The position numbers were made by a program, and so were the translations under genes. Below are positions 9,465 to 24,002 of a DNA stretch of 24,002 bases, piece after piece. Origin of the DNA: Candidatus Baldrarchaeum yapensis (GTDB taxonomy: Archaea; Asgardarchaeota; Baldrarchaeia; Baldrarchaeales; Baldrarchaeaceae); NCBI GenBank assembly GCA_016840465.1, contig JAEOSH010000031.1, forward strand, positions 1 through 24,002, written 5' to 3'. The notes under the pieces are model-generated. The model saw only the letters and a program-made list of their open reading frames with translations. It did not search any database and was not told the origin of the DNA. Every line of letters starts with the position of its first letter. The first letter of the stretch is position 1.

Positions 9465-9701
9465 TCATTGTGTCGCTGTAGCAGATATATCACGTGACTT
9501 TGCAAGCATCAAAACGCTTTCTAATTGCCTTAAAAGTCCCCTCTCCGATGCTCTCCATATTTCGATTCCCATAATCTCTCCGTTTTCATCGAGTTCGATT
9601 ATCACATCTTCTCCGGCCTCAATAACCTCCTTTGTCGCCCCATCTTTAAAATGAAGGTATAGTACATCGATTTCAGGATCGTAACTGACGATCATTTTCA
9701 T
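9465..9701 (-). CDS. DUF2283 family protein (putative antitoxin)
   Basis: YDPEIDVLYL...IIELDENGEIMGIEIW family pattern. Confidence 0.85.
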   Translation of the reverse strand: MKMIVSYDPEIDVLYLHFKDGATKEVIEAGEDVIIELDENGEIMGIEIWRASERGLLRQLESVLMLAKSRDISATATQ

Positions 9702-9847
9702 ATACCTCTGCAAAACTCGCCTCCTTATAACTTATCTACTCTCCTCTAGCACCCTATAAACTGTTAGGAAGAGAAACTTAAAGTTTAATTGCGATTTTAA
9801 ATCTGGGACGTGAGGTTCGGTCTCCATTGCAGAGGGGTCACTTAACG

Positions 9848-10021
9848 ATGAGTAAAAGTAATGCGGTAGAGTATGACCCTAAGGCGGACATACTGACGAT
9901 AAATCTAGTAGATGCGCCGCACGTCATAAGGGACGAACTCCTCGACAACGACATCGTCTTAGGCTATGATGAAAAAGAAAGGCTTGTACAGATTCAGATA
10001 CTGGATGCAAGCAAGAGATGA
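9848..10021 (+). CDS. DUF2283 family protein (putative antitoxin)
   Basis: YDPKADILTI...IVLGYDEKERLVQIQILDAS pattern; divergent from the first copy. Confidence 0.75.
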   Translation: MSKSNAVEYDPKADILTINLVDAPHVIRDELLDNDIVLGYDEKERLVQIQILDASKR

Positions 10022-10111
10022 CTCATTGATGTACTGGTAAGACTGACTGAGAAGATGCAAATTTCATAGAAGCCGTATCAAGGGTTTAAAAGATCAGGGA
10101 ATTGATAAACC

Positions 10112-10292
10112 GTTCTGACTCTCCGCCACTTTTGTTGCATTCGATGCGTGTGTAGCGGAGAGCCTTCCCGTCTCGGGGTTCATCGACGGGCCTTCGCGGG
10201 GAACGGTACTCCGCACATCCATCTGGCCCCTCGCTCCGCCCTTTCGGGCTTCCCCTCCCTCTTACCACCCATCCCACATCCCGGGCGGAGCC
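10112..10292 (-). ncRNA. Stand-alone TnpB omega-RNA-like element or non-autonomous IS remnant
   Basis: GC-rich and non-coding. Perfect 9-bp inverted repeat 10233-10241/10283-10291 and a terminal stem 10119-10126/10155-10162. Shares motifs and layout with the tnpB 3' end at 23652-23776. Confidence 0.55.
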
Positions 10293-10314
10293 ATTTGACA
10301 TAACAAAACCTTCC

Positions 10315-10328
10315 TTTATAAGGGTTTT
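10315..10328 (-). promoter_or_regulatory. BRE/TATA promoter for the omega-RNA-like element
   Basis: Minus strand CAAAACCCTTATAAA, with the TATA about 25 nt upstream of G10292 where the structured region begins. Confidence 0.55.
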
Positions 10329-10431
10329 GAGGTTGCAAAGGTGCATGAAAGCAACGAATGCAACACTATACGTTTCTGCCCCCCACTATAGGAATCTTGC
10401 TTAACCTTACAACCTCAGTGAAATTATTTAT

Positions 10432-10461
10432 ATGATAATAATTATCATGATAATAATTATG
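10432..10461. repeat. 15-bp tandem duplication containing a 14-bp perfect palindrome
   Basis: ATGATAATAATTATC/ATGATAATAATTATG; palindrome ATTATCATGATAAT at 10441-10454, between TTTATAT and the ATG at 10459. Confidence 0.85.
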
Positions 10462-11853
10462 AACGAGGAACTGAAGTTCTACGACCGGGAGGAAGAACTG
10501 GAAATACTGCGGGACTTCTGGAGGGAGGACAAAGCGGGTATCTGCGTTGTCTATGGAAGGAGGGGTATCGGGAAGACCAGGCTGCTCGTGGAGTTCTCGA
10601 AAACTGTCGACCGGCACATATACATTTCGATCCCGGAGGGAGAGTGGAGCATAATCGCCGAGTCCATTGCAAACCAACTATCTCTGCCCTCCTACTTCAG
10701 GTTCCCAACGTTCGAGGACTTCCTAAACTACATACTAAAACTCGCCGAGCAGAAGATCCTCATAATACTGGATGAATTTCCACGAATAGTGGATGCGGTG
10801 CCCGCCGCCTCCTCGATACTCCAGGGCGTCTGGGATCTCAAACTCTCACGCACAAAGGTAAAACTCGTACTGTGCGGATCATCCGTCGGAATGATGTTCA
10901 AAGAAACGCTGTCGTACTCGGCACCCCTTTACGGGAGGGTCTCCCGCATAATCCACCTCGAACCCCTCAGCTACATGAAGTTCCGCCAAATCCTAGCAGG
11001 AGTACCGGAAAAGAGAAAAATAGAACTCTTCGCGATCTTCGGCGGAACTCCCTCACACTTCATCTTCATAGACCCTAAGGCCTCGCTCGAGGAAAACGTG
11101 AGGAAGATACTTGACCCCACGTCGTACCTCTTCCACGAACCCTACCTTATACTGTCCCAGGAAACCCGCACGCCGGAACGCTACCTCTCTATCCTACTGT
11201 CAATAGCAAAGGGTAAGACCACCCTCGTCGAAATAGCAAACTACATAGGCATAAAGGCAACAAGCCTCCCCCAGTACCTGAGAGTTCTCGAAGAAATGGA
11301 CCTCATAAGGCGCGAGGTTCCCGCAACCGATGAACCGTGGCGCAGCAAACTCGGCAGATACAAAATATCGGACCCCTTCTACAGGTTCTGGACAACCTAC
11401 GTCTTCCCCCACAGACACATCATCGAAACCGGAAGCACAGTCGAACTCGTGAGAAGAATCATGGACGATCTCCCCCAGTTCGTCTCCCCCGTGTTCGAAG
11501 ACGCAATGCGCGACATCATCGTCCGCTCCGACATCTTCGGAACCTTCCTAAGATTCGGTGCGTGGTGGGACAGAAAAGGAAACGAAATAGACTTCGTCGG
11601 AATCAAAAGAAACGAGGTGTGGATCGGCGAATTCAAATGGGGAGACGTGAGCAAAAACGACATCACGAAACTCCTACAAAAAGCAAACCTCCTGAACATC
11701 AAAGGAGAGCAAAAACTCTTCATGATCTCCGGAAAAACCCCATCACCATCCGTGCAATCTCTCGCCGACGAACTAAACGTGAAAATACTAACCCTGGAAG
11801 AAATATCCCGATATCTCGATGAAAAACAAAAAGGGGAAACTACTCCCGCATGA
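10459..11853 (+). CDS. Archaeal ATPase (COG1672-type: P-loop ATPase + winged HTH + DUF234/PD-(D/E)xK-like C-terminus)
   Basis: FYDREEEL, Walker A YGRRGIGKT, Walker B ILDEF, DPFYRFW and EIDFVG...IGEFKW. Confidence 0.9.
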   Translation: MNEELKFYDREEELEILRDFWREDKAGICVVYGRRGIGKTRLLVEFSKTVDRHIYISIPEGEWSIIAESIANQLSLPSYFRFPTFEDFLNYILKLAEQKILIILDEFPRIVDAVPAASSILQGVWDLKLSRTKVKLVLCGSSVGMMFKETLSYSAPLYGRVSRIIHLEPLSYMKFRQILAGVPEKRKIELFAIFGGTPSHFIFIDPKASLEENVRKILDPTSYLFHEPYLILSQETRTPERYLSILLSIAKGKTTLVEIANYIGIKATSLPQYLRVLEEMDLIRREVPATDEPWRSKLGRYKISDPFYRFWTTYVFPHRHIIETGSTVELVRRIMDDLPQFVSPVFEDAMRDIIVRSDIFGTFLRFGAWWDRKGNEIDFVGIKRNEVWIGEFKWGDVSKNDITKLLQKANLLNIKGEQKLFMISGKTPSPSVQSLADELNVKILTLEEISRYLDEKQKGETTPA

Positions 11854-20358: not shown

Positions 20359-21026
20359 TCAGAAACCCTGTCTGCGCTCTAGAAACTTCTCGACAATCTC
20401 AGGTATGATCTTCTCCTGGGCCTCTAATACCTCCTTTTCGTGAAACGCCATGATGTGCCTGGGATACACCTTATCCGACACCACAAGCACCGCCGCGCAC
20501 TCCACTCCGTAATATTTGCACAGCGCAAAGACGCTGCCCGCCTCCATCTCCACGCACTTGACATTCCACCTCTCGTGGTACTCCCTTAACTTCCATAACA
20601 CCTCACGATACGGCGTCGCAATAGTCCATACCCTGCCCATATGAACACGTCGCCCCAAAGAACGAATCACGCTAACGAACTTCTCCACCAAATCGGCACT
20701 GGGACTTATCTCAACTCCATACGGCACATAGTGCTAGGCGAGTCCCTCCTCACAGATAGCCCCCGTGGGAACAGCGAAATCCCTTGGGCCCACATCCTCA
20801 CCAACTCCACCGCATAACCCGAAAAATAACACTATCTTTACCCTGTTTAGTGATAGCACCTCCTCGAGAACACCAACCTCGCTGGAACCTACGCCTATGC
20901 GCATTATCGACAGGGGGACACCTGAAACCTCCGCGACATGCAATCCCCACTTCTCCCCGGCCTCATATATCCAATTCGTCACAGGCCTCGCGCTCCACCC
21001 CTTTATAAAAGCCTCATGGATACGCC
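20359..21026 (-). pseudogene. Nucleoside phosphorylase (PNP_UDP_1 family), 3' part, with internal TAG at 20734-20736
   Basis: GLCGG, EEGLA*HY, VEMEAG and VVSD motifs; the two track ORFs are in frame across a single TAG. Confidence 0.85.
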
Positions 21027-21078
21027 GCGCGAAACAGTTAAATAATAAGTGAGTCTTTGTGTATATTAGTGAGCAAAT

Positions 21079-21687
21079 ATGGAACGACTGTACACACTCA
21101 AGGAAGCCTCGAAACTGCTTGGCGTTCATGTGAAGACGATACAAAAGTGGGATCGAGAGGGAAAAATACGGTGTGTTCGCACTCCCGGCGGTAGGCGTAG
21201 GGTTCCCGAGTCCGAGATAAGGCGAATTCTTGGAATTCAGGAGAAAAGGAAGATTGTTGGCTATGCAAGAGTTTCATCGCGAACCCAAAAAGACGACCTA
21301 GAGAGGCAAGTCGAACTCATAAGAAGCTACGCGAAAGAAAGAGGGTGGGAGATTGAGATACTCAAGGATGTGGGCTCAGGACTTAAGGAGGATAGGAGGA
21401 ACTTCCTGAAGTTACTGAGGATGGTGATGAACAGGGAGGTTTCCAAGGTCATTGTTGCGTATCCCGATAGGCTCACGAGGTTTGGGTTCAAAATTTTAGA
21501 GGAGTTTTTCAAAAGCTACGGCACGGAGATCATCGTAATTAACAGGGAAGAAAAGAGTCCACAGCAAGAACTGATCGAGGATCTGATCACAATAATTTCC
21601 CACTTTGCCGGGAAGCTTTACGGCATGCGGTCACACAAGTACAAGAAGGTGGTGGAGGGTGCAAAGCGTCTCATTGCTGACCCGTGA
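21079..21687 (+). CDS. tnpA: IS607 serine recombinase/transposase
   Basis: N-terminal MerR-like HTH ([24 protein letters not shown]...TPGGRRR), YARVSS catalytic Ser, [16 protein letters not shown] and [10 protein letters not shown]. Confidence 0.95.
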
Positions 21688-22687
21688 GGAAGTGCGGGCG
21701 TATTCCGTCCCCTTCGAAGACGAGAGGATAAAGAACTTAATTACGTGGTACAAGGTAATGTTGCAGAGGGCAATTGATGTAATTTGGGAGAACATCACTT
21801 GGAAGTACGACTTCAAGAAGTTCAGAAAGCGAAAACACGTCAAGTTTAGGGTTCCCGTTCTTCCAAAAAGCAAGGAGTTCAAGAAACGACTCAGGGACGT
21901 ACTAATGCGAGAGAACCCGTATGCCGCGCACTGGGTGGACGCAGTGATAAGAACCGCGTACAGCATAATGAATTCTTGGAGAAAGCGATACGTCAAGGGC
22001 AAGGCACGGAAAAAGAAACCAATCGTCGGTAGAAGGTTTGCAAGGTGCAAGATAACATTGATGAAGGTGGATTACGAGCGCAAAGTCATACGGATAACGC
22101 TAAGACCGAGAGAGCACATAGAGGTATGCTATGGGAATACGTGGTTCCACAAAAGAGTCGAGGGGTGGCGCGTCGGTGAGGTGGTTCTAAAGGACGACAG
22201 AATAATAATTCCGTTCAAGAGGGAGCGGGTACATGCAATAGAGCACGAGATAGCGTGGGACTGCAACGAGTTGACGATAGACGGATTTTCACCAACCATC
22301 GGGTTTGTGCGCGTGGATTTGAAGCCCCTAATAACCGAGAGGATAGTTTATCAGACGAAAAGATCTAGGATACAGGCGCTGATGTGTAAGAAGACCAAGA
22401 GAGGAAGAGAGTTGTGGCAAAAGTACCACAGGAAGGAGAGGAACGTGTGCCGACAGATAGAAAGGGCAATTGCGAGGAGCATTGTTGAGACATTTCCAAA
22501 TGCATTGCACATATTTGAGGAGTTGAACAAGGAGAAGATGATAAGGAAGAAAAAGGATGGTGAGGAAAGCAAACCGAAATTCTTGAGGAAAAGGGTGGCG
22601 AGGGTCAGTTGGGCGAACATTCGGAGGGAGGTCGAGCAGAGGGCGGTTGTTCAGAAGGTTGATCCGTATCTTACCTCAAAGACCTGC

Positions 22688-23474
22688 TCAAGATACATGG
22701 TTGGAGGTATAAGTCTATGAAGTACGTAAGAAAGTTGCCATTAGAGGAGAGGATGAAGTTGTATCATCAAGCACTAGAACTCAGAAGAAGAGGAGTTCCC
22801 ATAAAGACGATAGCCAAGACCTTAGGAATTAGTAGGAAAACTGTAGAGAGTTGGATCTATAAAGGGTGTAAACCAGATACAAGGGTATATAGTGTTAGAC
22901 TGACCTCCTCAAAGGAGTTGGCATATATATTAGGTCTCTTTCTCGGTGATGGTACGGTTACAAAGCATTCATCAAAAAAGAAGGATAAAGTAGTGGTCAT
23001 ACGGACTAAATATTCAAATCATGCAATCAAAATATCAGAAACTCTGAGGAAATTAGGTCTCAACCCCAGTATTTATCTCGATAGAAAATCAAAGTACAAT
23101 AAGAGGTGGAACGACTTATATGCAGTCAGGGTCTTCTCAAGGAGATTTGTTGAATTTATCGAATCAGTAACCGCAAGCAAAATCAGGGAAATGATAAGGG
23201 GTCATGAAATAGATTTTCTTCGTGGTTTTTATGAGGCAGAGGGTTCTCTAAGCTATAACAAGAGAATAAAGCAACTTCATATCCGTATTACTAATACTAA
23301 CTACGAATATATGGAGTTGGTAAGAGATATCCTTCAGTTAATTGGATTTAACGTTAATGTAAGGAGACGTAGAGGTACAAAGAAACCAGCTTATGAAATA
23401 GAATTGACAGGGAATAATATTTGTCGAAGATTTCTTAAAATAGTTAATCCGCTAATCAAGAATGAAATCAAGAT
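22688..23474 (+). mobile_element. AT-rich homing-endonuclease cassette bounded by TCAAGAT direct repeats
   Basis: Repeats at 22688-22694 and 23468-23474, 780 bp apart. Sampled lines of the cassette are about 30-43% GC; sampled tnpB lines are about 40-58%. Confidence 0.85.
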
Positions 23475-23490
23475 GCGGGTTTGTGGTTAA
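22717..23490 (+). CDS. LAGLIDADG homing endonuclease (two motifs) with N-terminal HTH
   Basis: HTH GVPIKTIAKTLGISRKTVESW; motifs LAYILGLFLGDG and FLRGFYEAEGS; GGAGGT SD at 22703-22708. Confidence 0.9.
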   Translation: MKYVRKLPLEERMKLYHQALELRRRGVPIKTIAKTLGISRKTVESWIYKGCKPDTRVYSVRLTSSKELAYILGLFLGDGTVTKHSSKKKDKVVVIRTKYSNHAIKISETLRKLGLNPSIYLDRKSKYNKRWNDLYAVRVFSRRFVEFIESVTASKIREMIRGHEIDFLRGFYEAEGSLSYNKRIKQLHIRITNTNYEYMELVRDILQLIGFNVNVRRRRGTKKPAYEIELTGNNICRRFLKIVNPLIKNEIKMRVCG

Positions 23491-23639
23491 AGACCTGAGA
23501 GGACAGGTCTTTGCGTGCCCAAATGCGGGTTGGTTGTCGACAGGCAGAAGAACGCGTGCGTCAACATCTATCTCAGGATGAAGGGCTTTCCCCACGACAG
23601 TGAGTGGTGGGAGCAGGTTGTGAGACCGCTCCTCAACCA

Positions 23640-23776
23640 CGAGTCGTGGGTGGGGTTGCCCGGATCGGGGCGGAGACCGATGATATGTCCCCCGGTGAAA
23701 GGGGGACTGAGGTTGGTGAAGCCCAAGGCACATGTCCGCACACAACCGCTCGCAAACGCGGACATGTGCTGAACCC
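23640..23776 (+). ncRNA. Putative TnpB omega-RNA scaffold / IS right end
   Basis: Overlaps the tnpB 3' end. Stem 23687-23693/23701-23707 and a perfect 12-bp terminal stem 23728-23739/23758-23769 just inside the junction. The 5' boundary is approximate. Confidence 0.65.
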
Positions 23777-23860: not shown

Positions 23861-24002
23861 GGTTGCCCGTGCGTTATCTTTTGGAAACTAAGGGTATTTT
23901 GGGAACCCGCACGGGCTTCCCCCTCGGCCGCCTCATCCCCTCGGCGGCCCATCGGGGGCCACATCGACGGGCACCACGGGGCCCGCCTCACGTGCGATCC
24001 GC
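23861..24002 (-). ncRNA. 3' part of another omega-RNA-like element, running off the right edge
   Basis: Perfect 9-bp stem 23864-23872/23908-23916, 7-bp stem 23926-23932/23943-23949, and the 11-mer CATCGACGGGC shared with 10181-10191. Confidence 0.45.

Follow-up and report, generated by a model that had tools for sequence, protein, structure and literature searches.

A protein-less IS607 miniature with a probable compacted omega RNA in the Asgard archaeon Candidatus Baldrarchaeum yapensis

Results and discussion

A structured, RNA-like locus with a promoter-like motif

The stretch of DNA analysed here (hereafter the window) comprises 24,002 nucleotides of contig JAEOSH010000031.1 of Candidatus Baldrarchaeum yapensis, whose genome is an Asgard metagenome-assembled genome (MAG) of 2.27 Mb, 96% complete. 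Small DUF2283 genes (9465-9713, minus strand, 63.5 bits; 9827-10021, plus strand, 49.9 bits) lie around the spacer beside the element under study, which is located 50 bp upstream of an archaeal ATPase_2/DUF234 gene (10432-11853). Downstream of a BRE/TATA-like motif, the minus strand is G+C-rich as far as position 10110, in otherwise A+T-rich spacer DNA. This structured, RNA-like stretch of ~187 nt, with its 3' end at 10110, folds with a free energy of -94 kcal/mol (z = -3.2; none of 200 shuffled sequences was equally good), and the plus strand of the same stretch folds no better than shuffled sequences (z = -0.7). The first-pass annotation of this DNA, made from the letters alone, had proposed a BRE/TATA motif and a downstream structured RNA on the minus strand, and both the motif (10328-10315) and the fold agree with that proposal. 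It had also remarked that the G-U extensions of the terminal stem work on the minus strand only; indeed, the G-U pairs of this stem (10164-10152 / 10129-10117) become C-A mismatches on the opposite strand. The RNA-like stretch is more than a product of chance, since it recurs in ~20 repeats in the genome and its helices covary across 38 sequences (see below). Its features, from 5' to 3', are the following:

10380-10382, minus strand: GGG at the left junction, resembling a TAM and containing the GG crossover dinucleotide (17 left ends compared)
10331-10379, minus strand: left end (LE), GCAGAAACGTATAGTGTTGCATT..., common to all copies and to C96:26171-26221 (84% identity), presumed TnpA-binding region
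10328-10315, minus strand: BRE/TATA-like archaeal promoter motif, AAAACC + TTATAAA (seen in the sequence; putative promoter function)
~10297-10292, minus strand: predicted 5' end of the RNA, from the spacing to the TATA box
10225-10296, minus strand: predicted 5' domain of the RNA, with motifs conserved in tnpB-linked relatives
10290-10283 / 10241-10234, minus strand: closing stem of the 5' domain, CUCCGCCC / GGGCGGAG, with one compensated pair in the G003 copy
10249-10238, minus strand: hairpin GCCC-GAAA-GGGC, part of the 5' domain
10110-10224, minus strand: 3' domain of the putative omega-RNA scaffold, together with the right end (RE), ending in GAACGG; 86% identity to C96:27912-28026 (tnpB 3' end and RE)
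10215-10211 / 10199-10195, minus strand: stem A, covarying
10201-10206, minus strand: loop of stem A, CCGUUC, predicted to pair with the 3'-terminal GAACGG (10115-10110) in a pseudoknot beside the guide (3 of 6 pairs covary)
10190-10185 / 10172-10167, minus strand: stem B, covarying
10173-10184, minus strand: loop of stem B, GAUGAACCCCGA, K-loop-like (3 nt, GA, spacer, GA, stem), pattern present in 25 of 38 homologues
10164-10152 / 10129-10117, minus strand: stem C, covarying
10090-10109, minus strand: copy-specific 3' flank that would be read as guide (UUUAUCAAUUCCCUGAUCUU); similarity among copies stops at 10110

No Rfam family reached its gathering threshold in the window, and a permissive scan gave only chance-level matches (E ~1-8), none of them within the element on its own strand; a match to an unrelated known RNA family, which would have spoken against the first-pass annotation, is thus lacking in Rfam. 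Weak matches to C/D-box snoRNAs on the plus strand (9961-10048) are spurious, lying within the DUF2283 gene at 9827-10021. We also discarded as a gene an open reading frame of 86 amino acids (10086-10346), which has no Pfam match and of which the other copies of the locus carry indels and lack the ATG.

A multi-copy repeat family

The window element, from 10379 to 10110, is one copy of a repeat of ~270 bp that contains no protein gene. BLAST against its own genome retrieved ~14 full-length copies at 74-98% identity together with shorter derivatives, ~7 copies being truncated, and the flanks differ in all of them. When the copies were aligned with their flanks, similarity started inside a G-run (10384-10379), immediately before GCAGAAACGTATAGTG, and stopped exactly after ...GUCAGAACGG at 10110, the flanks beyond being unrelated. 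The copy number and the differing flanks suggest that the element has moved. A 98% identical sister copy on contig C89 indicates recent activity, and internal deletions in several copies (C76b, C1 and C82b) imply decay in part of the family. Contigs end in several of the copies, and the repeat explains several contig breaks in this assembly. Searching related genomes for an empty site with the flanks of the youngest sister copy matched only the repeat itself; none was recovered because the flanks of the locus are not conserved in four genomes of the same order. The view of the locus as a free-standing gene with its own promoter has to be amended: the TATA-like motif and the lack of a protein gene stand, but the locus is a multi-copy, probably mobile MITE with ~14 full copies.

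Divergence among the copies is uneven. Mean pairwise differences are lowest in the TATA box, motifs and stems (0.02-0.12), higher in the terminal loop and spacers (0.27-0.32) and highest in the flanks (0.75). No copy has lost the TATA-like motif itself (0.10, versus 0.32 for the spacer just downstream), not even the most diverged ones or one in the genome of a member of another family (G003). This pattern fits selection on a putative transcript, without being proof of it.

Two minor peculiarities concern individual copies. Those at G000 C39:1-26 and C69:3440-3465 have a common left flank (at least 26 nt) and different right flanks, which may be due to strain heterogeneity, to an artefact of the assembly or to copies having recombined. 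In addition, left ends that are solo or truncated occur at C76:22492, C82:5706 and C89:3505.

IS607 parentage

Two longer loci have only their ends in common with the repeat. One of them, on contig C96 of the same genome (C96:26171-28029), is an autonomous IS607 element that encodes a serine-recombinase TnpA and a TnpB; its left end (C96:26171-26221) is 84% identical to that of the repeat and its right end (the last 118 nt) 86%. The TnpA (203 amino acids) has a MerR-type HTH and a resolvase domain (NF033518, 237 bits; cut-off 110). The TnpB (~430 amino acids; NF040570, 162 bits; cut-off 100), with a Cas12f-like TNB domain and the ADRD RuvC motif, is apparently intact, judging from its sequence, and its reading frame extends through the right end. 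Genome-wide, there were 5 resolvase-domain and 6 TnpB zinc-ribbon matches; no Y1 transposase was found in this 96% complete genome. For lack of a Y1 transposase match, and in view of the G-rich junctions, we rejected an IS200/IS605 parentage; the parent family is IS607. The direct parent of the miniature was not found.

We regarded as marks of an IS607 MITE ends shared with an element that encodes TnpB and a serine-recombinase TnpA (MerR-like HTH plus resolvase domain), a GG crossover at both junctions, and the lack of long terminal inverted repeats and of target duplication. The ends are shared with the C96 element and GG is present at both junctions. The right end reads ...GAACGG, with ...AACGG in every intact copy. 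Among 17 left ends, the bases before GCAGAAACG are G at -1 in all 17, at -2 in 14 and at -3 in 13, and position -4 is variable; the third G could belong to the element and not to the target motif, and the G-run at 10384-10379 makes the exact left boundary indeterminable. A sequence CAGAA(A)CG is common to both ends in direct, not inverted, orientation, and the flanks show no duplication beyond GG. The two options left by the first-pass annotation, a trans-acting guide RNA whose TnpB is encoded at another place or an IS derivative that is non-autonomous, are supported by the ends shared with C96 and by the match to tnpB-linked RNAs described below.

A 3' domain shared with the 3' ends of tnpB genes

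We built a covariance model (R1) from the 3'-terminal 115 nt of 16 sequences, leaving the pseudoknot out of the model. In the own genome it detected 21 sites, a count of copies that had been proposed as a check; the highest score, 142 bits, was that of the tnpB 3' end on C96, with 138 bits for the copy in the window. The first-pass annotation had made its reading depend on a covariance-model similarity to tnpB-linked RNAs, which the C96 match provides. Of 151 Asgard genomes sampled, 20 also contain R1 matches, frequently a large number of them. Among 28 foreign loci that we fetched, 13 have a tnpB homologue of substantial extent that ends at the RNA, in several cases with a tnpA upstream, and the remaining ones have no tnpB homologue within 1.5 kb.

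In 38 aligned R1 matches, 91% of the cells of the nested helices are paired, compared with 65% after shuffling and 36-54% when the structure is slid along the alignment, and 23 of the 24 nested pairs have changed on both sides. With the pseudoknot included, the values for shuffled and slid structures range over 65-69% and 35-54%. The pseudoknot is likewise paired in 91% of the cells; 3 of its 6 pairs have changed on both sides, 3-4 sequences having the variant GGGUUC with GAACCC, and a U-to-C change breaks one pair in five copies. Thus, the predicted RNA fold is kept by compensating changes, and what appears to be the same RNA is found at tnpB 3' ends in other Asgard genomes.

The hairpin CCCGUC-GAUGAACCCCGA-GACGGG (10190-10167) had been said to resemble a K-loop, that is, a canonical stem, a 3-nt bulge and tandem G-A/A-G pairs from GA...GA closing a loop, a structure bound by L7Ae. 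The sequence pattern is indeed present, and it stays in 25 of the 38 homologues while the stem covaries; in tnpB-linked copies the bases of the pattern are coding. Binding of L7Ae to this hairpin would be speculation based on this pattern. A literature search found no paper linking TnpB RNAs with L7Ae, which is not proof of absence.

The 3' domain has homologues at tnpB 3' ends overlapping the right end, a scaffold that stops at the element boundary, and a fold with a pseudoknot beside the guide, as characterizes omega RNAs. As an omega RNA it would also be transcribed, bound by TnpB and used for TAM-dependent DNA cleavage; a conserved TATA-like motif in the copies and the apparently intact TnpB on C96 are what the genome shows in this respect.

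The tnpB-like gene of the window itself provided a further comparison. Its 3' end was said to share three features with the locus, and these are all there: GGGGTTGCCCGGATCGGGGCGGAG at 23652-23675, CGATGA, and an ending with AAGG, a long stem, an A/C-rich loop and GAAC at ~23776. The kinship is nonetheless distant, this 3' end being only a weak match to R1 (11.9 bits). Accordingly, we rejected the tnpB of the window as cognate partner; the close tnpB-linked relative is on C96 (142 bits).

A probably compacted 5' domain

Two motifs of the 5' domain, CCCGGGAUGUGGG and AAGCCCGAAAGGGC, recur almost base for base as CCCGAUAUGUGGG and AAGCCCGAAUGGGC in tnpB-linked relatives, the proteins of which are only 64-78% identical to the C96 TnpB. 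Every one of these relatives has both motifs in the part that codes for the zinc finger, where their distance to the 3' domain exceeds that in the miniature by ~110 nt. Because of this difference in distance, the miniature looks like a compacted omega RNA that has lost a coding-only middle and has probably gained a new closing stem; no counterpart of this stem was found in the C96 element. When the 5' domain is aligned colinearly with the TnpB C-terminus at the protein level, the match is weak, and the two-motif match to the zinc finger is the better account. The compacted scaffold, with two 5' motifs, three stems and a pseudoknot, points to the parts that evolution keeps without coding constraint, and could inform how archaeal TnpB guide RNAs are trimmed for engineering.

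In several tnpB genes (L025, L045-L048, L065, L067 and L068), CCCGATATGTGGG and TAAGCCCGAATGGGC are conserved base for base in zinc-finger codons, ~100-125 nt upstream of the R1 match. This suggests, at the level of nucleotide conservation, that omega-RNA elements may be embedded in the tnpB coding sequence ~290 nt from the right end. Related genomes also contain another type of miniature (L049 on G001:C110 and L050 on G004:C291), with a left end of its own (GGGCAGTAACATAGAGTG), a TATA-like box and both 5' motifs in reversed order, followed by the same 3' domain. Gene-less derivatives thus seem to have arisen more than once.

The putative guide

The guide was originally placed from ~10111 onwards. 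Its predicted start has to be moved to 10109, since the GG at 10111-10110 is conserved across copies and belongs to the conserved end. The flanks do vary, as had been thought worth checking, each copy having a unique one. For 20 copies, we searched the genome with the 16 nt past the right end and found no second site at 1 mismatch or less; matches with 2 mismatches were scattered and at chance level. The viral, plasmid or promoter targets envisaged earlier were found for none of the guides. What would serve as guide is the flank of each local site, in line with the transposon-retention model.

Proposed mode of life and alternatives

The region from 10379 to 10110 consists of an IS left end, a TATA-box motif and a compacted omega-RNA scaffold that runs to the right boundary. 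We consider, with a probability of roughly 80%, that it is best explained as a protein-less IS607 miniature that is mobilised in trans by a recombinase and whose omega RNA is used by the TnpB of its parent for retention. The serine recombinase would move the miniature in trans by GG crossover via a circular intermediate. From the predicted promoter, the TATA box would drive a transcript of ~187 nt plus flank, with the predicted ends given above, and the TnpB of the full element would bind it. With the flank (10109 downward) as guide, TnpB would cut the emptied site (NGGG plus flank) after excision, and recombination would then restore the copy. The miniature would in this way make use of the parental machinery for mobility as well as for retention.

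A bolder version of this scenario, which we put forward only tentatively and think rather doubtful, is that the miniature has evolved into a stand-alone guide-RNA gene and is not debris. It would represent a natural minimal omega RNA of ~187 nt, with the coding-only middle of ~110 nt lost, a new closing stem, an archaeal promoter of its own and a K-loop bound by L7Ae. Its ~14 copies would give the single cognate TnpB of the genome a distributed guide repertoire, the nuclease protecting the insertion sites of its own parasites.

Alternatively, the element might be an inert relic: selfish DNA moved by the recombinase, whose RNA-like part is kept because it serves as ends in cis or because the copies are young, and which is neither transcribed nor used by TnpB. 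The truncated and internally deleted copies and the pseudoknot-breaking change in five of them point in this direction, as does the similarity of most copies (86-90%), which implies that limited time has passed. However, the TATA box, motifs and stems are 3-fold less diverged than the spacers and terminal loop, as an RNA gene predicts, compensating changes are seen among the copies and in the G003 copy, and the interior motifs are far from both tips. We therefore regard this explanation as improbable.

It is much less credible still that the RNA is a domesticated guide that serves regulation or defence instead of retention, by leading TnpB, or a TnpB-like protein that is inactive, to a target in the host, a virus or a plasmid. 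The promoter-like motif of its own and the lack of an adjacent nuclease gene would suit such a role, and TnpB-derived RNA-guided regulators have reportedly been published as a precedent. This is nevertheless a multi-copy element in which each guide is the local flank, the guides of 20 copies lack a second genomic site at 1 mismatch or less and have only scattered matches at 2, and the locus is not conserved in place in related genomes. Finally, a box C/D or H/ACA guide, RNase P, SRP RNA or riboswitch, as the GAUGA and GA motifs of the K-loop-like hairpin and a G+C-rich RNA in an A+T-rich spacer might have suggested, has a negligible chance of being the answer given the Rfam results and the homologues at tnpB 3' ends.

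Comparison with known systems

The IS607 IStron of Clostridium botulinum has a strict GG core at both junctions and TGGG as target and TAM; its scaffold ends in ...UCGG and a C at -3 shields the occupied site (Zedaveinyte et al., 10.1101/2023.11.20.567912). The family described here resembles it in a parent with a serine-recombinase TnpA and a TnpB, the GG core at both junctions, the G-rich, TAM-like left junction (TGGG in the IStron, NGGG in the miniature) and a scaffold ...CGG directly before the guide. At the right end of the miniature, a C at -3 would protect the occupied site, as in the IStron. Unlike the latter, the miniature has neither a protein gene nor a group I intron, resides in an Asgard archaeal host and has a TATA-box motif; its scaffold, ~110 nt shorter than the tnpB-linked form, is a further difference from IStron-type elements.

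Gene-less elements are better known from the IS200/IS605 family, in which PATE-like elements encode omega RNAs (Meers et al. 2023, PMC10055086). Like PATEs, the miniature is minimal and non-autonomous and has kept LE, RE and omega RNA, and its RNA would have to be used in trans by the TnpB of another element in the same genome. PATEs depend, however, on a Y1 tyrosine transposase, single-strand movement and A/T-rich TAMs, whereas the miniature belongs with an IS607 serine recombinase and GG junctions. Stand-alone omega RNAs of OMEGA systems (Altae-Tran et al. 2021, as summarised in PMC10691335) are reported in that summary to work in trans. As far as the summarised account goes, they too are mobilised loci without effector or transposase, with effector-bearing loci in the same genome; the miniature differs from them in belonging to a specific archaeal IS607 family and in having a conserved TATA box and a K-loop-like hairpin, and its activity in trans is presumptive.

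With stand-alone omega RNAs and PATEs published, the element is a clear example of an already described kind, since transposon ends, promoter-like TATA box and TnpB guide-RNA scaffold are all kept. A structured, promoter-equipped RNA-like locus can in this way be explained without a new RNA class. Our literature search found no paper on IS607 miniatures in Asgard archaea, which is not proof of absence. The present family adds the serine-recombinase IS607 family of these archaea to IS605 as a home of gene-less omega-RNA miniatures; in this genome the miniatures outnumber the autonomous element ~14 to 1.

Other elements in the window

A second, distantly related IS607-like element occupies positions 21024-23776. 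It comprises a gene for a serine recombinase, TnpA (21079-21687), and a tnpB-like gene (21605-22720) that is divergent, its product being 39% identical to the TnpB encoded at C96:32063-33223. The latter gene is split in its zinc finger by a 780-bp insert, which carries a gene for an HTH + LAGLIDADG endonuclease (22717-23490) and whose two junctions both contain TCAAGAT (22688-22694 and 23468-23474). Without the insert, CSRCG is restored, but the downstream CVPKCG...DRQ then falls in a different frame, which makes the divergent tnpB a probable pseudogene. PMC10691335 mentions cargo of the WhiA/meganuclease type in TnpB transposons.

The end of the contig (23859-24002) belongs to a different repeat family, likewise G+C-rich, of which at least 8 copies (92-100% identity) are present, including C88:1-144, C82:5999-6141, C96:28615-28760 and copies on C8 and C74. 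The copy at C96:28615-28760 lies ~590 bp past the right end of the C96 IS607 element. On its minus strand, the contig-end repeat has a K-loop-like hairpin (23948-23972) that is a weak match to R1.
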